Shown one piece after another: positions 1 through 30,128 of a stretch of 30,128 nt of DNA. The notes beneath the pieces were generated by a model. The model was not told the origin of the DNA. It did not search any database and saw only the letters and a list, made by a program, of their open reading frames with translations. Position 1 is the first letter of the stretch. The number at the start of each line of letters is the position of its first letter. The DNA is taken from positions 1-30,128 of IMG/VR virus record IMGVR_UViG_3300029905_000019; one strand, 5' to 3'. This stretch comes from a virus. The position numbers and the translations under genes were made by a program.

Positions 1-60
1 CCGTACCGCTGGCGAAAGCCTCTCCGTAGAAAGTTTCATTCTCATTCTCTTTAACTGTCG
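1..60. other. G+C-richer edge segment of unresolved nature (truncated gene end or RNA element)
   Basis: The first ~60 nt (ccgtaccgctggcgaaagcc...) are much less AT-rich than the pure A/T tract that follows. They contain a GGC-GAAA-GCC mini hairpin. Several frames stay open to the window edge, so no assignment is possible. Confidence 0.2.
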
Positions 61-302: not shown

Positions 303-764
303 TTAAGATATTGATATTGTTATTTCAGATTCACTTTCAACTATAATATCATATAGTTTTCTGAAGGTACTTGTACTATTAGTTACTTTACCCTTGACAG
401 AATTTGTTCCAACCAAAATGCAACCTGAACTATCTTCTTCATCATTTCCAATATGTATTAATACACCGTCAAAACCGGGTACATTTACTAATCTAGGTAA
501 ATATCCATCACAGAACTTATAAGCAGCATATTTTTTAAAATCACTAAATTTTGGAGATATTATGTCCAAACTTACCTGATATGTTCCTGTTGGAATTGCT
601 GTTTTTCCATATACCTTTATTTTATTAATCTCTTCAAGTGGCATATCCTGTGTCAATCCTCTATCTTTATCTTCCAATGTATCACAGAAATAAGAGCCAT
701 TTATATATAGTTTACCTATTGTATAATCATTACCTTTAAAAATCCTTTTAAGTTCAAGTTTCAT
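303..764 (-). CDS. DUF5675-like protein; candidate peptidoglycan-acting enzyme (endolysin candidate)
   Basis: 153-aa ORF. Motifs IPTGTY, SPKF, LPRLVNVPGFDGVLIHIGNDEEDSSGCILVG match my memory of the DUF5675 family. The His...Gly-Cys pair is reminiscent of Cys/His cell-wall enzymes. It is the last gene of the leftward operon, next to a membrane protein. Confidence 0.5.
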   Translation of the reverse strand: MKLELKRIFKGNDYTIGKLYINGSYFCDTLEDKDRGLTQDMPLEEINKIKVYGKTAIPTGTYQVSLDIISPKFSDFKKYAAYKFCDGYLPRLVNVPGFDGVLIHIGNDEEDSSGCILVGTNSVKGKVTNSTSTFRKLYDIIVESESEITISIS

Positions 765-4888: not shown

Positions 4889-6352
4889 CTATGCTAATAT
4901 CCAATTCTTATTTGTTGCTACCGCTTTTTGCTCTTCAGATAATTTTGCAAGATTAGTACTACCTAAAGTTAATGTTTTACTTGATTGTCCTGTAAGGTCA
5001 ACAAGAACTGATATTACATTAACAAGACTATCTACTGTAATAATATCAGAATATGATAATCTTAAATCACAATTTAATGTACCTGTTAAAGTTATATTTG
5101 TTAATTGGCCGCAAGAAGTAAACATACCATCAGCACTTCTTAAACTTGATAAATCACTTGTAAATGAAGTTAATTTATAATTATATTGAAACATATAATT
5201 AGAAACTTCTAATAGTGGCATATTACTTGTAAATGTTTCTAATTTAGAACAGCTGCTAAACATTCTATTTGCAAATATTACATTTGGTAAATCAGTATCC
5301 CAACTTGCTAATTTGTTACACCCACTAAACATATCGTTGCCATTAGTTAATTTTGGTAAATCAATATTCCAACTCGTTAAACTAGTACAACTATCAAACA
5401 TACTTCCGCCTTCTTCTAAATTAGGTAATGCCGTATTAAAATCTTTTAAATAATAGCAATTATAAAACATACCATTTCCTTTAACTAATTTATCTAAATT
5501 AGTAGTTTGAAATGATGATAAATTAGATTGATAGAATAGTCCATAAGTTAAATTAGATGAAGTGGAATTACCATTTTCAATTAGATTTGATAAATCACCT
5601 GAAAATGTTTGTAATTTTGAAAAATTAAATAATCCTTTTGCATATTGTAAATTAGTTAAATTATTGTTAAAACTTGCTATATTACTAAATTGACATTTAA
5701 AATCTCCACTAGTTAATTTTTCCCATCCTGTAACAAAAGATGGAACTTCTGTTAGTGTACTATATGATAAACTTACATAAGGTAATGATATGTCATATGT
5801 AGTAGGAGGATTAGATATTGATACACTAATATCAACTTTACTTAATCCATCATATTCACTATCAGGTGTTACAGATGATTGACCATTTTGTGATATACTT
5901 ACTGATTTTTCTTGTAACGTTGGTGATGGGGTAGGTACATTAACTGATATAGTACCACCACTTATACCACCAAATCCCGAATCAGGAGATATTACAGTAT
6001 TACCATTGGTTACTATACTATAATCTTTGGATTGTAGTTGTGGAATAGGTACATTAACACTAATAGTACCACCTGTAATGCCGTCATAACCTTCATCAAC
6101 AGTTATTGTAGTATTTCCATTACTTGTAATATTATAATTCTTGGATTGTGAAGTATATGTTGGAATAGGTACAGCAACATTTATTGAAACTTCTGAAAGT
6201 CCATCATATTCAGCATCAGGTGATACTGTAGATGGTCCATTTTCAGTAATTTCAACTGATTTTTCTTGTGTTTTATATTCGGGGCAAGGTGGACAAATAC
6301 CACCACTACCCGCAAAATTTATTTTACTTATATTTATTTCCATATATTTCAA
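4889..6352 (-). CDS. Tail fibre / receptor-binding protein: four ~39-aa beta repeats plus BspA/DUF285-type leucine-rich repeats
   Basis: 487 aa. Four repeats of the type I(T/S)xNGxxx(V/I)xPDxxYDG(L/I)SxVxIxVxVP. These are followed by ~24-aa repeats of the type GMFxxCxxLxSFxxDLxxL, and then a C-terminal tail shared with 6975..7829. Confidence 0.7.
   Translation of the reverse strand: MKYMEINISKINFAGSGGICPPCPEYKTQEKSVEITENGPSTVSPDAEYDGLSEVSINVAVPIPTYTSQSKNYNITSNGNTTITVDEGYDGITGGTISVNVPIPQLQSKDYSIVTNGNTVISPDSGFGGISGGTISVNVPTPSPTLQEKSVSISQNGQSSVTPDSEYDGLSKVDISVSISNPPTTYDISLPYVSLSYSTLTEVPSFVTGWEKLTSGDFKCQFSNIASFNNNLTNLQYAKGLFNFSKLQTFSGDLSNLIENGNSTSSNLTYGLFYQSNLSSFQTTNLDKLVKGNGMFYNCYYLKDFNTALPNLEEGGSMFDSCTSLTSWNIDLPKLTNGNDMFSGCNKLASWDTDLPNVIFANRMFSSCSKLETFTSNMPLLEVSNYMFQYNYKLTSFTSDLSSLRSADGMFTSCGQLTNITLTGTLNCDLRLSYSDIITVDSLVNVISVLVDLTGQSSKTLTLGSTNLAKLSEEQKAVATNKNWILA
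4895..5040. repeat. Copy 1 of ~146-nt direct repeat (3' ends of the two fibre genes)
   Basis: Aligns without gaps to 6981-7126 at an offset of 2086, including a 39-nt exact run 5002-5040 = 7088-7126. Confidence 0.85.
5816..6268 (-). repeat. Four tandem ~39-aa coding repeats in the fibre N-terminal half
   Basis: The NG dipeptide recurs at residues 38, 78, 116 and 156 with conserved flanks. Confidence 0.7.
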
Positions 6353-6974: not shown

Positions 6975-7829
6975 TTAAGATAATATCCAATTCTTATTAG
7001 TCGCTACCGCTTTTTGTTCATCAGTTAGTTTTGCAAGATTGGTACTACCTAAAATTAATGTTTTACTACTTTGTCCTGTTAAATCAGCAAGAACTGATAT
7101 TACATTAACAAGACTATCTACTGTAAGATTAGTAGAAACTGATAAATTAAAATTATCACAATTTAAAGTGCCACTTAAAGTAAAGTTTTCAAGTGCTGTA
7201 CAACCACTAAACATAGTATTGTCTGAATAAAGGGGTGTTTCTGTTAAATTAGATAAATTACTAATAAATGTTTGTAAGTTACTACATCCTTGAAACATAC
7301 TTAATCCATTATTTAAATTAGGTAAATCTATATTCCAATTAGTTAAACCAATGCAATATAGAAACATATTAGTACCATTAGTTAATGATGATAAATCACT
7401 TGAAAAATTAATTAATTGTGAACATCTTGCAAACATTACAGTACCAGTTGTTAGATTTGTTAAATTGCTTGTAAAATTTGTTAAACTTGTACAATTCTTA
7501 AATCCGGTATAACATACAATGTTACCACTTTCATAAGTACTTCCACCGCCAATTGTTGTTGCTGAACTATTTCCAAATTGTGTAGAAGTAGTTATATTTG
7601 AAAAATCATAACTATCATTAATAGTTGTAATATTATTATTAAATACTAAAACGTCACTTCCTACAACTGCTTTTTGAATAGTTCCACCTGTTTCAATTTC
7701 ACCTATTTTATCTGCATAACTTGCAAAAGAATCACTATCAGATACTGAAACACCTTTTTCAATTATGGCATTTTTGATAGCTGATTTTGTGCTTTGTAAT
7801 AAATCTAAATTTTCTTGAATTGTTGCCAT
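6975..7829 (-). CDS. Second BspA/DUF285-type LRR tail fibre protein
   Basis: 284 aa. N-terminal [29 protein letters not shown] units (MFxxCxxLxNFxSxLSxLTxG), and a C-terminal ~45 aa nearly identical to that of 4889..6352. Confidence 0.7.
6981..7126. repeat. Copy 2 of ~146-nt direct repeat (3' ends of the two fibre genes)
   Basis: See 4895-5040. Confidence 0.85.
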
Positions 7830-7831
7830 AA

Positions 7832-8374
7832 TTATCCATTTATTTCAGTTAATGTATTATTAATATTGCCAATAGTCGCATTAATACTATTTATAGATGC
7901 GGCTATTACTTTGTTTTGTACTGGATTTTCAGAAGTAGTTGATAATTCAGAATCTACTGTAACAGTTGCATCACTTCCAGCTGGTCCTGTTGGTCCCATT
8001 GGTCCTTGTGGACCTGTATCACCTTTAGGTCCTGTTTCACCTTGTGGTCCTGTTTCACCTTGTGGTCCTGTTGGTCCTTGTGGTCCTTGTGGTCCTTGTG
8101 GTCCTGTAGGACCTACTGCGCCATCTTTACCATCTGCTCCAGCTGGTCCTGTTGGTCCCATTGGTCCTTGTGGTCCTTGTGGTCCTGTTTCACCTTGTGG
8201 TCCTGTTGGTCCCATTGGTCCCTGCGGTCCTGTTTCACCTTGAGGTCCCTGTGGACCTGTAATGCCTGATATTTGGCTAATTATTATATCATTATTTTCA
8301 TCAAGTCCAACAACATTTTTTAGTTGTTCACTTGGTGATATTGGTAATGTACTTAAATCTATGTAATTTGCCAT
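7832..8374 (-). CDS. Collagen-like tail fibre protein
   Basis: 180 aa with about 33 uninterrupted Gly-X-Y triplets ([19 protein letters not shown]...). Its stop is 2 nt from the start of the LRR fibre gene. Confidence 0.9.
7970..8266 (-). repeat. Gly-X-Y triplet-repeat coding region
   Basis: 9-nt periodic ggtcc(t/c)tgt/ggacc units on the plus strand. Confidence 0.9.
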
Positions 8375-9021: not shown

Positions 9022-9102
9022 TTTAATTATAATTTTGTTTTATTCATATAAAAAATGTATTTTTAATAAGAATAAAATATTTATATATAAACTAAAATAA
9101 AT

Positions 9103-9744
9103 ATGGAAATAGAAATATTTAGAGATATACCAAATTATGAAGGTATATATCAAATATCAAATCTTGGTAATGTAAAATCATTAAACTATAATAAAACAGG
9201 TAAAGAAAAATTATTAAAGCCTACTAAAAATGTATTTGGCTATTTATATGTTAATCTTTTTAAAGATAAAAGGCATAAAATGTATAGAGTACACCGATTA
9301 GTAGCATTAACATTCATTCCAAATCCTAATAAGTTAAAGGAAATTAATCATAAGGATGAAAATCCTTTAAATAATTGTGTACATAATTTAGAATGGTGTG
9401 ATAGGAAATATAATAATACTTATGGAAATAGAATAAAAAAGTCAATCCAAACAAGACGGATTAATGACCCTAACAACGAATCTTATAAAAAAATGATTGA
9501 AACAAGACGGATTAATGACCCAAATAATGAATGGTGTAAAAAAGCGATTGAAACTAAACGGATTAATAATTTATTAGGCGAAAAACCTATTATTCAATAT
9601 ACTAAAGAAGGCGTTGAATTAGGAATATATAGTGGAACAAGAGAAGCAGAACGACAAACAGGTATTCCACATTCAAATATTTCTTATTGTTGCAAAGGTA
9701 GATATAAATCTGCAGGGGGCTTTATTTGGAAATATGCTATATAA
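9103..9744 (+). CDS. HNH homing endonuclease (NUMOD4 - HNH_3 - repeated linker - NUMOD1-like HTH)
   Basis: Paralog of 829..1407, including a 50-nt exact match (9391-9440 = 1117-1166). It has the same motif order plus a 17-aa linker unit repeated about 2.5 times. Confidence 0.85.
   Translation: MEIEIFRDIPNYEGIYQISNLGNVKSLNYNKTGKEKLLKPTKNVFGYLYVNLFKDKRHKMYRVHRLVALTFIPNPNKLKEINHKDENPLNNCVHNLEWCDRKYNNTYGNRIKKSIQTRRINDPNNESYKKMIETRRINDPNNEWCKKAIETKRINNLLGEKPIIQYTKEGVELGIYSGTREAERQTGIPHSNISYCCKGRYKSAGGFIWKYAI
9451..9580 (+). repeat. 51-nt (17-aa) tandem coding repeat, about 2.5 units
   Basis: Units start at 9451, 9502 and 9553 (acaagacggattaatgacc...), encoding TRRINDPNNESYKKMIE / TRRINDPNNEWCKKAIE / TKRINN... 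Confidence 0.8.
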
Positions 9745-24006: not shown

Positions 24007-24025
24007 TTTATATATTTTTATTTAT
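24007..24025 (-). promoter_or_regulatory. 19-nt motif tttatatatttttatttat (copy 1), upstream of 23543..23998
   Basis: Identical 19-mer at 27097-27115. Both copies begin within 10 nt of a minus-strand ATG. Confidence 0.45.
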
Positions 24026-24060
24026 ATATAAATATCACCTAACTTTCAAAAAGTTATATT

Positions 24061-24075
24061 TTTTATAAAAAATAT
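24061..24075 (+). promoter_or_regulatory. Class-B-like motif TTTTATAAAAAATAT just upstream of the plus-strand lipoprotein gene
   Basis: Same 15-mer as at 14197 and 17111, lying 5 nt before the ATG at 24081. Its orientation relative to the gene is opposite to the late genes, so its significance is uncertain. Confidence 0.25.
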
Positions 24076-24080
24076 TTATT

Positions 24081-24560
24081 ATGAATAAAATGAAAATAGT
24101 TATATTGCTTTTATGTTTGATATTTGCAAATTGTGCTGTTAATAAAAACATAAAAACCAATCAACAGAATAGATTGATAGATAGCACCTATTCAGTTAAA
24201 ACAGATAGTACTATTCTTAATTCAAATAAAATTGAAAAAGATAATAGTACAGAAAATACTGAAATTAAGATTGAAGAAAATATATCTGAAATTATTGCTG
24301 ATAGTGTTAATCGGACTTCTACACAACGTACTGTTAATAAAATAACAATAATAACTAAAAATAAAAAAAATGATATAGTAAAATCAGATACTATATCATC
24401 AACTTCTATTAAAATAGATACACTTGCAAATATCAAAAAAGATAATTCAACTATTGATAGTAAAGTAGTTGAAAAAGAATCTCAATCTTTAAAATGGATT
24501 ATGTATATTGTTATATCAATTTCAATAGTCGCTGTTATCCTATTTTTGAAATTTAAATAA
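24081..24560 (+). CDS. Secreted or lipid-anchored protein with C-terminal transmembrane helix (lipoprotein candidate)
   Basis: 159 aa with signal peptide MNKMKIVILLLCLIFANC (Cys at position 18, atypical Asn at -1), an Asn/Ser/Thr/Lys-rich middle and a C-terminal WIMYIVISISIVAVILFLKF. Confidence 0.6.
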   Translation: MNKMKIVILLLCLIFANCAVNKNIKTNQQNRLIDSTYSVKTDSTILNSNKIEKDNSTENTEIKIEENISEIIADSVNRTSTQRTVNKITIITKNKKNDIVKSDTISSTSIKIDTLANIKKDNSTIDSKVVEKESQSLKWIMYIVISISIVAVILFLKFK

Positions 24561-24585: not shown

Positions 24586-25044
24586 ATGAATATGGAAATA
24601 TGGAAAAAAATTAAAGATTATGATAATTATTATATTTCAAATCTTGGAAATGTTAGATATAACTATTGTAAATTGAAACTATATAAAGATAAGGATGGTT
24701 ATTTACAGGTATATTTAAATCATAAACTATTTAAGGTTCATAGATTAGTTGCATTAGCATTTCTTCCAAATCCTGATAATTTGGAAGAAGTTAATCACAT
24801 TAACCAAATCAAAAATGATAATAGAGTTGAAAACCTTGAATGGATTAATCATAAAGATAATACGCAATATTCTTGCGCACATAAAGTTTCACAATATTCA
24901 TTATCAGGTGTACTACTTAATACATTCAACAGTATTAGAGATGCTGCTACTTTAACAGGTACAGATAGAAAATCTATTGCATTATGTTGTAAATGCGCAA
25001 AGAATTACAAAACCGCTAATGGCTTTATTTGGAAATATGCTTAA
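24586..25044 (+). CDS. HNH homing endonuclease (NUMOD4 - HNH_3 - NUMOD1-like HTH), short form
   Basis: YDNYYISNLGNVRY, HRLVALAFLPNPDNLEEVNHINQIKNDNRVENLEW and RDAATLTGTDRKSIALCCKCAKNYKTANGFIWKYA. The homologous start MEIW at 24592 matches the MEIE starts of the two paralogs. Confidence 0.8.
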   Translation: MNMEIWKKIKDYDNYYISNLGNVRYNYCKLKLYKDKDGYLQVYLNHKLFKVHRLVALAFLPNPDNLEEVNHINQIKNDNRVENLEWINHKDNTQYSCAHKVSQYSLSGVLLNTFNSIRDAATLTGTDRKSIALCCKCAKNYKTANGFIWKYA

Positions 25045-27940: not shown

Positions 27941-27968
27941 AGTCTATTATATTTTATTTTATTATTCT

Positions 27969-27999
27969 AAAAAAAAATAACGGCTTGATAACTGCCGCC
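27969..27999 (-). terminator. Weak terminator candidate
   Basis: On the minus strand, a 4 G-C bp stem (plus 2 G.U pairs) in ggcggcag-ttatcaa-gccg is followed by ttaT9. Confidence 0.3.
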
Positions 28000-28127
28000 T
28001 TACTTGCAAATCATCAAACCGCTATTTGGAAAGTATATTAAATTATTTTTATGGGAATAAGAAAACTTCCAATTTATTATGTTTGACAAATATTAGTAAG
28101 GCTTAATATCTATCTTAATTACACCGC

Positions 28128-28148
28128 AAATATATAAATTATTTTTTT
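28128..28148. repeat. 21-nt direct repeat aaatatataaattattttttt (copy 1)
   Basis: Identical copy at 28375-28395. Confidence 0.7.
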
Positions 28149-28374
28149 AATTACCAAATTATTTTTAAAAATAATTTAAATATTTTTATTTTTTATATAT
28201 AAATATATCAAAGTTTTAAAAAGTACAAATTATTTTAATATTTTTTTATTTTTTTGTTGAATTTGGGAATCAGATATATAATATCCAATTCCCGTTTTCA
28301 ACGTCAAATAATAATAAAATAAAAACTAATATAAATAACAATGAAAGAACAAGACAATATCCAAAACTTTTTAT

Positions 28375-28395
28375 AAATATATAAATTATTTTTTT
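28375..28395. repeat. 21-nt direct repeat aaatatataaattattttttt (copy 2)
   Basis: Identical to 28128-28148. Confidence 0.7.
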
Positions 28396-28423
28396 TAAAA
28401 ACAAATTTTATTATTTTTTTGTT

Positions 28424-29353
28424 TTATATATAACGCCAAATATAGCCGCCACAGCTTTTTAACTTACCTTTACAACAAGAACAAATGTTTGATTGTGCAA
28501 TACCTGTTTGCCTTTCAGCTTCTCTACTACTTTTAAATTTTCTTATTAGTTCGCCATTTTTGCTAAATTGACCTATTTCTACTGTGTTGTCATTTTCTAT
28601 AGTGTTGTCATTTTCTACTGTGTTGTCATTTTCTACTGTGTTGTCATTTTCTATAGTGTTGTCATTTTCTACTGTGCTGTCATTATTATATTCATCGCTC
28701 ATTGCAATTGGCATATCTTTTTTAGCTTTTGGATATATTGGTTCAAGTGAATCCTTTATTTTTTGGCTATATTTTAGTAATGGTTCAACAAAAGGTTTAT
28801 CTATTTTATTAAGATAGACATTTAATATATTTTCAAAGACATATAATACATTTTGGGTCATTGGCAAATTATCGAAATGGTTATTATTTAATTCAATATA
28901 TCTTTTAATTCCGTTATAAATTGACAATCCTCGTTTTATATTATATCTAATTAAATCATTATCTCTTTTAACTTCATCAACATATAATGCGATTTCATTT
29001 AATACTTCATCATCACTAATAAATATTTTGTCTTTATAAAGTTCAGCTGTCAATATTCTAATGATTGTTTTAGCTTGTTTTAATATATCCTTTTTCACTA
29101 CATTATCATCAGTTGATTCTGTATTATAATATTTTATTTCTCGGAAAATAGGAACTAATGCTACATATAGGTATTTGCAATTATTAGCACTTGCATCATC
29201 TTGTAATTTACTTTTAATTATATCATTAGCTTTACCAAGTAAAGAGATTAATTCTTTATCAAATGTCTTTTTTTCAGTAAAAATAGTTGAGATGTTGTCT
29301 TTAAACTTACCTTGAAGTTTAATAAACTGTAATTCATTGTTATACATAATCAT
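28424..29353 (-). CDS. DNA-binding protein: unknown N-terminal domain + (ENDNT[VI])x6 linker + NUMOD1-like HTH, with no nuclease domain
   Basis: 309 aa. The C-terminal FKSSREAERQTGIAQSNICSCCKGKLKSCGGYIWRYI is the same module as the C-termini of the three HNH endonucleases. NUMOD4 and HNH motifs are absent. Confidence 0.6.
   Translation of the reverse strand: MIMYNNELQFIKLQGKFKDNISTIFTEKKTFDKELISLLGKANDIIKSKLQDDASANNCKYLYVALVPIFREIKYYNTESTDDNVVKKDILKQAKTIIRILTAELYKDKIFISDDEVLNEIALYVDEVKRDNDLIRYNIKRGLSIYNGIKRYIELNNNHFDNLPMTQNVLYVFENILNVYLNKIDKPFVEPLLKYSQKIKDSLEPIYPKAKKDMPIAMSDEYNNDSTVENDNTIENDNTVENDNTVENDNTIENDNTVEIGQFSKNGELIRKFKSSREAERQTGIAQSNICSCCKGKLKSCGGYIWRYI
28579..28686 (-). repeat. Six tandem 18-nt coding repeats (ctac/ctat tgtgttgtcatttt)
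   Basis: Units start at 28579, 28597, 28615, 28633, 28651 and 28669 in an ABAABA' pattern. The last unit is degenerate. Confidence 0.9.
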
Positions 29354-29569
29354 TTTATTTTTAATTATAAATATCTTGTATTTCTAAAAAATACCATTTT
29401 TTAGTAAAAATATTTTTATTTTTAATAAAAAACAAATTATTTTTAAAAAAAATAATAACTTTTTAAACTAATGTGATATTTATTATATGAATAACCTAAA
29501 TAAAGGTTGTTTTTTAATATAAAAAAATATATATTTATATAAAAAGAGATTGTAAATCTTATTTTAACG

Positions 29570-29930
29570 TTCTTTGGAAACTTTACACATATCAAACAGG
29601 AAATGATGCTTGTTAATCTGTTTGATATAGAACGAGCCTTAAACCCACTGTAACGAGTAATAGGGAAGGTTCAGACATCGGGTGTGGTCTTCATAAATAT
29701 TGATAGAGCACTTGCTACAAACCCCGATAGTGTAGAAAATGATAGAGGTGATGAAGTTGAATTGTTATCCATTTGCAAGCTTTGAGGAAAATGGATACTT
29801 CTTATAGGTTGAGGAATCTATAAGATTTGGTAATACTGACGTAAATTAGACTCACAATTCAATAAGACCTACTATTGAGTAGCCGTTTGAGATTGCATTA
29901 AGGGGTTTTGTATCTATACCTGAAGTACTT
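29570..29930. ncRNA. Candidate structured RNA or cis-acting element (class unknown)
   Basis: A G+C-elevated island inside a 775-nt ORF-free region. Perfect helices: 29589-29599/29618-29628 (11 bp), 29766-29774/29789-29797 (9 bp), 29800-29807/29818-29825 (8 bp) and 29677-29682/29723-29728 (6 bp). One stacked helix needs a G.U pair that exists only in the plus sense. Confidence 0.3.
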
Positions 29931-30047
29931 AAAGATATTCTAAGTATTAAATATCATATAATATATAATAAATTGAATTAAATTATATTTTATGATAGAT
30001 TAAGAAAAAAGAAAAGACAATTCAATTCAATTCTATACAATATCCAA

Positions 30048-30116
30048 TACCTATTGGAACAATCATTAAAGATAATTATAACTTAATGCAACCTTATAAG
30101 ATAATTCCAATAGGTA
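30048..30116. repeat. 12-bp inverted repeat tacctattggaa / ttccaataggta separated by 45 nt
   Basis: Read directly: 30048-30059 against 30105-30116. The left arm is itself part of the near-palindrome ccaata-cc-tattgg (30044-30057). Confidence 0.6.
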
Positions 30117-30128
30117 ATAATTATTACT

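Follow-up and report, generated by a model that had tools for sequence, protein, structure and literature searches.

A structured plus-strand RNA with covarying helices in the gene-free end of an AT-rich phage genome, and its possible link to a replication origin

The virus record IMGVR_UViG_3300029905_000019 of IMG/VR, analysed over its 30,128 nucleotides (nt; this whole stretch is called the window hereafter), belongs to a phage whose genes are nearly all encoded on the minus strand. At its right end, beyond the early gene of a 309-amino-acid (aa) protein, positions 29354-30128 carry no gene, as stated by an earlier reading of the same DNA, referred to here as the original prediction. Specifically, the region is overlapped by only six open reading frames (ORFs) of 20-50 aa, the longest with a TTG start, and stops occur in all frames; the 33-aa ATG frame noted in that reading is nested in a 35-aa TTG frame (29671-29778, minus strand). 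Within this gene-free DNA lies an island of higher G+C content which, as described below, is very probably the gene of a new, independently transcribed non-coding RNA, read from the plus strand and with its core at 29582-29876.

The profile of base composition agrees with the claim of a G+C-elevated island, since in 100-nt windows the G+C fraction is 0.31-0.41 over 29550-29949, 0.08-0.18 upstream and 0.14-0.22 downstream. The mean over 29570-29930 is 0.357, compared with 0.27 for the genome, a value at about the 94th percentile of the genome's 360-nt windows, that is, elevated and not unique. The GC skew of the island is positive (+0.15 to +0.44), and all 2-kb bins of the genome are negative except one. 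The island is non-coding: beside the lack of an ORF, its substitutions show no codon periodicity (8/10/9 and 21/30/26 by three-base phase), and the 7231 ORF pieces collected from the loci compared contain no protein match to it beyond chance.

The same phage is present as fragments in several ENA, Logan and JGI assemblies, as found by exact-protein look-ups, and four diverged homologues of the island were obtained from metagenome assemblies of ENA and Logan, where they belong to related phages of about 30 kb. Samples with the phage are ERZ27239275-97, SRR4096739, ERZ28594820, ERZ28656384 and SRR7685252. Searching proteins with the 309-aa gene, we obtained one diverged relative (P0002, 52% identity), which lies on a 1.6-kb contig, L017, where the whole island is kept at about 93% identity. 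In addition, the search with the gene of a DUF5675 protein located at the other end of the window (303-764) led to three longer contigs, L019, L022 and L038, in which the DUF5675 gene is followed by an ORF-free gap of about 1.3 kb and then by the early genes. In each of these gaps a homologue of the island is present, located on the opposite strand from the genes. The five RNAs fall into two clades, one with the window, L017 and L038 and the other with L019 and L022, about 57% identical to each other. All relatives keep the RNA at the same intergenic site; the 309-aa gene that adjoins it is absent in L022, and no gene is constantly linked to the RNA.

The evidence that carries the RNA gene is the pattern of substitutions among these sequences. 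The plus strand folds better than its dinucleotide shuffles (z = -3.3), the minus strand less clearly so (z = -2.2). The pairwise tests began with a structure predicted from the window alone, blind to the homologues, and used 5000 random placements of the substitutions. The 27 substitutions of L017 produce 7 compensatory pairs, compared with a mean of 0.44 and a maximum of 4 in random placements. Those of L038 produce 14 on the window structure (2.3 expected) and 20 when L038 is the reference (1.95 expected), and the comparison of L019 with L022 gives 12 (1.5 expected); in all four tests the observed count was never reached by random placement. A hand-curated alignment of the five sequences holds 81 pairs, with 374 of 378 cells canonical. 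Moreover, a covariance model built from the window, L017 and L038 only (303 positions, 86 pairs) recovers the two RNAs of the other clade end to end with 98-99 bits (E about 1e-25). In the five-sequence alignment made with this model, the 86 pairs fall into 11 helices and 96.7% of the cells are paired, versus 78% in shuffles. Changes on both sides affect 43 pairs, versus 21.9±3.2 in shuffles, none of 500 reaching that count, and 3-10 in slid controls, and the covariation score is 0.626, versus 0.24 shuffled and 0.07-0.11 slid. A two-sided change is found in ten of the eleven helices, the exception being the 3-bp P2b. In other words, the compensatory changes that the original prediction proposed to look for in homologues are there, above both kinds of control, and it is because the helices are preserved by matching mutations in related phages that we regard the island as a real non-coding RNA gene.

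The strand is set by the wobble pairs. The five-sequence consensus contains 30 G·U cells when read as plus and 1 when read as minus, and canonical pairing is 98.9% on the plus strand versus 91.3% on the minus; the RNA is a plus-strand molecule. Compensatory changes above controls and strand-specific G·U pairs, the general marks of a structured non-coding RNA, are both present. Consequently, the suggestion of a large structured RNA on the plus strand is upheld by the strong covariation of four independent homologues, by the wobble asymmetry and by a promoter motif of phage type located upstream, to which we return below.

The secondary structure consists of two domains (Table 1). In domain 1, P0 encloses P1, P2 and the stacked P3-P4-P5 arm, and a linker AAAAU then leads to P6; domain 2 is built on the stem P6-P7, which opens into P8, P9 and a long conserved single strand. 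The helix P0 was found by seeking complementary unpaired segments, and its register is identical in the five RNAs while the sequences are entirely different (UUAUGC/GCAUAG in L038, UGAUCU/AGAUCA in L019, UUGAACC/GGUUCAA in L022). In P1, the window and L017 alone already differ by three compensatory pairs. GAGCCUU/AAGGUUC of P2a is replaced by UACAAGU/GCUUGUA in L019, and ACU/AGU of P2c by ACC/GGU in L038. Along the following arm, P3 replaces a U-A pair with G-C in L038 and a G-C pair with U-A in L022, P4 replaces G-C with A-U in L017 (G29684A compensated by C29711U) and with C-G in L038, and P5 replaces C-G with G-C in L017. In domain 2, two-sided changes affect 5 pairs of P7, 3 of P8 and 8 of P9, and P6 is nearly invariant, with one compensatory pair. 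The sequences of P1, P2a, P7, P8 and P9 vary freely; the most conserved nucleotides are those of P6 and the surrounding junctions, of the P5 loop UAAAUAU, of the junction J4/3 (UGCUACAAAC) in the same arm and of the P8 loop. The junction J9/7 is a conserved single strand of 28 nt that opens with UUUGGUAA (29826-33) and goes on to AGAC.

Table 1. Coordinates of the RNA, its helices and the neighbouring DNA in the window
Feature	Position	Strand	Remarks
Structured RNA core P0-P9	29582-29876 (~295 nt)	+	Covariance-model match spans 29579-29882
P0	29582-88 (UUUACAC)/29730-36 (GUGUAGA)	+	Closes four-way junction P0/P1/P2/P3; two-sided change in 4/7 pairs
P1 hairpin	29589-29600/29617-29628	+	12 bp, 16-nt loop L1; two-sided change in 9/12 pairs
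P2 three-tier hairpin	29634-29672	+	P2a 29634-40/29666-72; P2b 29644-46/29663-65; P2c 29647-49/29656-58
P3-P4-P5 arm	29677-29728	+	P3 29677-82/29723-28; P4 29683-86/29709-12; P5 29688-93/29701-07
3' domain	29741-29876	+	P6 29741-49/29867-76; P7 29757-65/29854-62; P8 29766-74/29789-97; P9 29800-10/29815-25
L1 segment GCUUGU	29608-29613	+	Proposed kissing partner of L8 29775-29780 (GCAAGC)
L8, conserved P8 loop (GCAAGCUUUGAGGA)	29775-29788	+	First six bases are the proposed kissing partner of L1
3' tail, conserved sequence blocks	29877-29939	+	No consensus helix common to both clades
Promoter-like motif TTGTTTTTT-N14-TATATTTA (TTG-N20-TAnnTTTR)	29507-29537	+	~45 nt upstream of P0
Divergent early-promoter region of the 309-aa gene	29354-29506	-	Promoter-like motif 29405-29435
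AT-rich DNA 3' of the RNA, ended by the contig edge	29940-30128		Two AAGATAATT repeats; imperfect inverted repeat 30039-30125
Gap continuation at the other contig end	62-302		AT-rich DNA; conserved block ~150-266; DUF5675 gene terminator hairpin 267-295
Foreign G+C-rich piece	1-54		100% identical to Bacteroidales metagenome-assembled genome CALVAG010000006.1, inside an 813-aa ORF

The helices are nested, in the order P0[P1,P2,P3-5] then P6[P7[P8,P9]], with the exception of a contact between the loops L1 and L8. This contact, which may form within one molecule or between two and would link the two domains, is likely on comparative grounds. In L017 the two segments read GCUUAU/GUAAGC, and the only changes (G29612A and C29776U) compensate each other; in the other clade they read CCUGU/GCAGG (L019) and UAACCUG/CAGGUUG (L022), always at the 5' end of L8. 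A second contact, between J4/3 and J9/7 (CAAA/UUUG), is possible, and both of its sides are invariant, hence it holds no covariation information.

The six helices listed in the original prediction are all present in the sequence, and four of them have gained comparative support: 29589-99/29618-28 is P1, 29677-82/29723-28 is P3, 29766-74/29789-97 is P8 and 29800-07/29818-25 is P9, which extends to 11 bp. The remaining two are unsupported, as tgtgg/ctaca (29683-87/29715-19) is broken in L017 and L038 and P4 takes its place, and ccttaa/ttaagg (29637-42/29898-903) conflicts with the covarying P2a. Other candidates were discarded during the analysis. A long-range pairing of 29678-87 with 29914-23, proposed by the minimum-free-energy fold of the window and by a two-sequence RNAalifold, yields to the local P3/P4 once L038, L019 and L022 are added. 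Covariation was not consistent for a P10 hairpin, for a helix closing the 5' leader on the 3' tail or for the pairing AAGACCU/AGGGG in place of P6. Finally, a 10-aa ORF behind a GAGGA resembling a Shine-Dalgarno sequence in L8 is not conserved and has no AUG in L022.

Known RNA families do not include this molecule. Across the whole window, none of the 4227 models of Rfam 15, which comprise GOLLD, ROOL, raiA, OLE, HEARO, 6S, RNase P, tmRNA, pRNA and plasmid RNAI, gives a match at its gathering score. A cmscan of 29300-30128 at E ≤ 10 returned three chance matches only, all outside the island, and a second cmscan, of all four homologous loci at E ≤ 1, returned none; the GOLLD, ROOL, intron and ribozyme classes that had been put forward as candidates therefore found no match. 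ARAGORN detects no tRNA or tmRNA in the window. Likewise, BLASTN against 50,697 GenBank phages with the region, with 25 kb of the window and with the L019 gap gave no match, and no GenBank phage has a large terminase more than 27% identical to that of this phage, which places it in an uncultured lineage.

The searches for further members were carried out at several levels. No relatives were found in IMG/VR with the 309-aa protein or with the terminase. Exact and degenerate DNA patterns of the conserved core identified no true homologue in IMG/VR, JGI metagenomes and GTDB genomes, an absence that is weak evidence because such scans require near-exact matches; the later gapped-pattern matches L025-L036 are false positives within coding sequences of unrelated genes. 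Among 77 IMG/VR loci with DUF5675 relatives, mostly on contigs of about 50-100 kb, neither nhmmer nor the covariance model revealed a homologue of the RNA, the 16-bit matches in L044 and L048 being due to chance, and the same two methods applied to 88 related loci added no member. In six loci with DUF5675 relatives of about 70% identity (L021 and L039-L043), the entire gap is absent. No description of this RNA was found in the literature searched, and 11-15-mers characteristic of it do not occur in 200 supplementary files of PMC8040213, although a prior listing in such screens is possible.

With regard to transcription, the motif upstream of P0 also precedes five protein starts in the correct orientation (765-795 and 9035-9065 on the plus strand; 28127-57, 28374-404 and 29405-35 on the minus strand). 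Of its seven occurrences in the window, six are intergenic and point at the next feature, that is, the five protein starts and the RNA, and the block 29507-37 is conserved in all four homologues. Written as TTGTTTT...TAnnTTT[AG] with a fixed 20-nt spacer, the motif resembles the Bacteroides -33/-7 consensus, TTTG / TAnnTTTG. The block 29507-37 is thus a putative phage-type promoter of the RNA. On the RNA strand, terminators were called 3' of the core neither in the window nor in L019 or L038; in the window clade, a hairpin at 29881-29909 followed by U4-5 could act as a weak one.

The RNA stands back to back with the early-promoter region of the 309-aa gene, and the AT-rich block 29354-29506 has further copies at 24018-24104 and 28371-28412. 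Another stretch free of ORFs, 483 nt long (27941-28423), separates the 309-aa gene from the next early genes. It contains a strong minus-strand hairpin followed by U9 (~27975-28025), a 13-bp hairpin (~28262-28305) and three repeated promoter-like units, has a fold z-score of -6.4 and is kept in L019 and L022; it resembles a combined terminator and promoter region.

On its other side the RNA faces DNA of a very different kind. In L019, L022 and L038, the RNA is followed in 3' by 100-500 nt of extremely AT-rich DNA with iteron-like direct repeats and also tandem repeats, the units of which measure 87 nt (2.7 copies) in L038, 95 nt (2.2 copies) in L022 and 29-33 nt (3 copies) in L019. Most assemblies, the window included, break in this DNA. 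Because the DUF5675 gene, the gap and the early genes follow one another in the relatives, the two ends of the window must be adjacent in the real genome. In particular, L019 4572-5273 aligns with window 766-67 and L019 5514-5732 with window 30126-29909, which leaves about 240 nt of AT-rich DNA missing from the window between its ends; the stretches that would bridge 30128 to 62 are L019 5036-5700, L022 4217-4690 and L038 3454-4170. The proposed circular continuation of the gene-free region through 1-302 is in this respect correct, as the ends adjoin in the relatives. The G+C-rich piece at 1-60 does not belong to the element, since 1-54 (48% G+C) is identical to coding DNA of a Bacteroidales genome and does not occur in the corresponding gaps of L019 and L022. 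It is likely an assembly chimera or a host junction, and a contig of the same phage, L004, ends at window 62. Between the AT-rich repeats and the terminator of the DUF5675 gene, which was called in L019, the non-coding block 150-266 is 90% identical to L019 and 78% to L022.

From their composition and repeat content, the AT-rich repeats are a presumptive replication origin and/or genome end. The alternative of an ori- or att-type element, raised in the original prediction, thus survives for the DNA directly 3' of the RNA and fails to explain the island itself. The cumulative GC skew of the genome gives no origin signal, because nearly all genes are on one strand. None of the ten early proteins matches polymerase, primase, helicase or initiator families, and one of them has a helix-turn-helix domain.

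A further property of the locus emerges when the RNA core is compared with its flanks over window 29440-30126. Between the window and L019 the flanks are 86-88% identical and the core 57%, and between the window and L038 the flanks are 60-62% identical and the core 77%. This pattern suggests recombination that swaps RNA types between phage backbones. Such reshuffling of RNA types relative to the flanks is what would be expected of specificity determinants, for example of replication-control RNAs.

Taken as a whole, the best explanation that we can offer combines the RNA gene with an origin-RNA mechanism, and we give it a probability of roughly 45%. Transcription would start at about 29543, driven by a promoter like those of the phage's own genes, and would proceed rightward, opposite to almost every gene. 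The transcript would then continue, with no recognisable terminator, into the AT-rich, repeat-bearing and ORF-free DNA between the early and late operons. The P1 and P8 loops would dock, within one molecule or between copies, and the folded RNA may serve the neighbouring region as a replication-origin RNA, either as a pre-primer or as an activator. That is, the fold would decide whether the transcript opens or primes the AT-rich repeats. The origin-linked part is tentative and we consider it somewhat short of an even chance; it is preferred to other roles because of the AT-rich repeats, the assembly breaks, the terminator-free 3' side of the core, the lack of matches to replication enzymes among the ten early proteins and the mosaic of RNA types.

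Several points weigh against this interpretation. The most conserved part of the molecule is the junction of domain 2, which fits a protein-, ligand- or RNA-binding core equally well. The AT-rich repeats could equally be a packaging site or genome ends, and neither an antisense partner nor an RNase H-type feature nor a DnaA box was found. Many of the early proteins are unannotated, and a replication initiator could be among them. In so AT-rich a genome, the promoter motif shows no statistical enrichment, with 7 occurrences found and 3.8±1.7 expected. The RNA is known here from sequence comparison, and its 5' and 3' ends are predictions. As for the fold, the five-sequence alignment was fitted to the structure, a flaw from which the unbiased pairwise tests are free, and the comparison covers five distinct sequences only, in two clades of one narrow phage lineage.

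The nearest rival keeps the same structured RNA and gives it a function in trans, unrelated to the origin: a protein-binding scaffold or decoy, used in takeover of the cell or against its defences, or an RNA that assembles with itself through L1 and L8, in the manner of ROOL and GOLLD cages or of phi29 pRNA rings. We judge it rather unlikely, yet it is the main rival. The conserved unpaired nucleotides cluster in J3/6 (AAAAU), J6/7 (GAU(G)AA), J9/7, L5 and L8 while the peripheral helices are free to vary, as expected of a core that binds a partner or forms tertiary contacts. The covarying complementarity of L1 and L8 could be intermolecular, as in ROOL, GOLLD and OLE, whose multimers with kissing loops provide a precedent (bioRxiv 10.1101/2024.12.08.627333), and the RNA has its own early-type promoter motif. 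However, no terminator was called that would define a discrete RNA, and there is no constantly linked gene. In addition, ROOL and GOLLD are much larger than this RNA of about 300 nt and do not match it. A bolder reading, which we hold to be doubtful, is that the RNA represents a new functional class, that is, a multimer self-assembling through the P1 and P8 loops, as a small analogue of ROOL and GOLLD cages or pRNA rings, or the first elaborately folded phage origin RNA, replacing the missing replication proteins; either way, its two interchangeable alleles, found in phages that are otherwise alike, would be specificity types.

Far less probable is a ribozyme, a self-processing RNA or a mobile RNA, such as the remnant of an intron without ORF or a self-cleaving element tied to HNH/NUMOD endonucleases. 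The compact two-domain fold, the proposed long-range tertiary contact and the conserved junction core would suit such an RNA, and the phage carries at least three HNH/NUMOD endonuclease genes besides the neighbouring gene with a NUMOD-like domain. Nonetheless, there is no match to group I or group II introns or to self-cleaving ribozyme families, even at E ≤ 10. Of the features of a group I intron, neither a match to RF00028, nor a P3/P7-type pseudoknot in the order of the helices, nor flanking exons were found, the flanks being conserved AT-rich non-coding DNA, and the RNA sits at the same intergenic site in all five phages. A reverse transcriptase, IscB or TnpB, the partners of group II introns, retrons and omega RNAs, was not found in the early region; the genes that neighbour the RNA encode the DUF5675 and the 309-aa NUMOD-like proteins.

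Even less room is left for a cis-acting leader or antisense regulator, in which the structure would govern an element downstream on the plus strand or protect the early promoter region against read-through. The back-to-back arrangement with that region, and a small hairpin with a T-run just upstream (29494-29515), would fit such a role. Against it, no plus-strand ORF is present from the RNA to the terminator at 267-295, be it in the window or the relatives, the RNA overlaps no gene in antisense, and these roles would need far less than an RNA of about 300 nt that has 11 helices and a tertiary contact.

A DNA-level element with no functional RNA (a single-stranded DNA fold or cruciforms acting as origin, packaging or attachment site) is very improbable too, although the island is inside the only long ORF-free region, beside the repeats, where assemblies break. 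The count of 30 G·U-type pairs on one strand and 1 on the other is at odds with it; nested helices 100-150 nt apart with a loop-loop contact are unlike cruciforms; protein-binding palindromes conserve sequence, and here stems change freely with pairing kept. Moreover, the large terminase is typical of double-stranded DNA packaging, which makes a single-stranded form unlikely. Lastly, a decayed pseudogene or chance hairpins in AT-rich DNA can be set aside almost entirely: the 36% G+C of the island is within the upper range of the genome's coding DNA, but stops are present in all frames, the open pieces differ between homologues, no related protein or codon periodicity was found among the loci compared, and compensatory substitutions reach 6-16 times expectation.

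As to the rest of the genome, three free-standing HNH/NUMOD homing-endonuclease genes (829-1407, 9103-9744 and 24586-25044, plus strand) are oriented opposite to the other genes, the first two being about 80% identical in nucleotide sequence. The early protein of 309 aa (28424-29353, minus strand) combines a NUMOD-like DNA-binding C-terminal end with an ENDNT[VI] tandem repeat; another relative of it, P0001, is 20 aa shorter. The region 4889-6352, 6975-7829 and 7832-8374 encodes two LRR_5/DUF285-type (BspA-like) paralogues with a near-identical C-terminus, adjoined by a protein with collagen-like G-X-Y repeats, which are probably tail-fibre or receptor-binding modules. The hosts of this lineage of AT-rich phages of about 30 kb are probably Bacteroidales, as hinted by weak BACON matches, by DUF5675 relatives on large IMG/VR viral contigs, by the promoter resemblance and by the foreign 54 nt.

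RNAs that are large and have a complex, conserved fold are uncommon, and the majority of those characterised proved to do something fundamental. The comparative signal obtained here from only five sequences is unusually clean: it covers eleven helices with a four-way junction, a conserved core at the junctions and a loop-loop contact that probably joins the domains, and a molecule of about 300 nt is small enough for chemical probing, cryo-electron microscopy and mutational work. Should the link to the origin-like repeats be true, the RNA would reveal how replication begins in a minimal phage; should it instead be trans-acting or self-assembling, the ornate phage RNAs, so far unexplained, would gain a tractable member. 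Further relatives of the RNA can be sought in read archives with the present covariance model.

Three known systems are instructive in this context. In the ColE1 plasmid, RNA II is a long, specifically folded RNA that decides whether priming occurs. The ColE1 origin and those of T4 (oriF/oriG), T7 and lambda, which are primed or activated by transcripts, share a layout in which a promoter is directed towards an AT-rich origin-like region with no terminator between them, and the putative promoter and presumptive origin of this phage would fit such a layout. The resemblance is limited to layout and logic, as there is no homology, the Rfam plasmid RNA families are unmatched and no antisense partner similar to RNA I was found.

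The pRNA of phi29 (RF00044) is a phage-encoded structured RNA transcribed from a genome end, in which two mutually complementary loops covary between related phages. The proposed L1-L8 contact is reminiscent of these loops. The RNA described here differs in being about twice as long and of another architecture; it gives no match to RF00044, and the phage encodes a large terminase of the Terminase_6N/6C type instead of a phi29-type packaging ATPase.

A further likeness is with the ornate RNAs of other phages and prophages. ROOL measures roughly 580 nt and GOLLD roughly 800 nt, compared with about 300 nt for this RNA; a size of about 500-800 nt and a position that is often next to tRNA genes, as in those families, are not found here, where the core has about 295 nt and the window no tRNA. 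Like the present RNA, ROOL and GOLLD (RF03087 and RF01998) are phage-borne, stand-alone, heavily structured, defined by covariation and of unknown function; they differ in that neither their sequence nor their structure matches it, and in that it is known from one narrow phage lineage. ROOL, GOLLD and OLE form RNA-only multimers by means of kissing loops, whose intermolecular contacts covary and matter, in ROOL and GOLLD, for higher-order structure (bioRxiv 10.1101/2024.12.08.627333), a property to be compared with L1-L8, from which a cage-like multimer would here be a conjecture. Finally, the candidates that large comparative screens of phages and microbiomes have yielded (Genome Biol 2021, PMC8040213; Comput Struct Biotechnol J 2023, PMC10690425) are objects of the same type, namely intergenic RNA motifs that covary, from gut or phage sequence. 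The RNA of this phage is a new family inside the broad known category of stand-alone structured phage RNAs.

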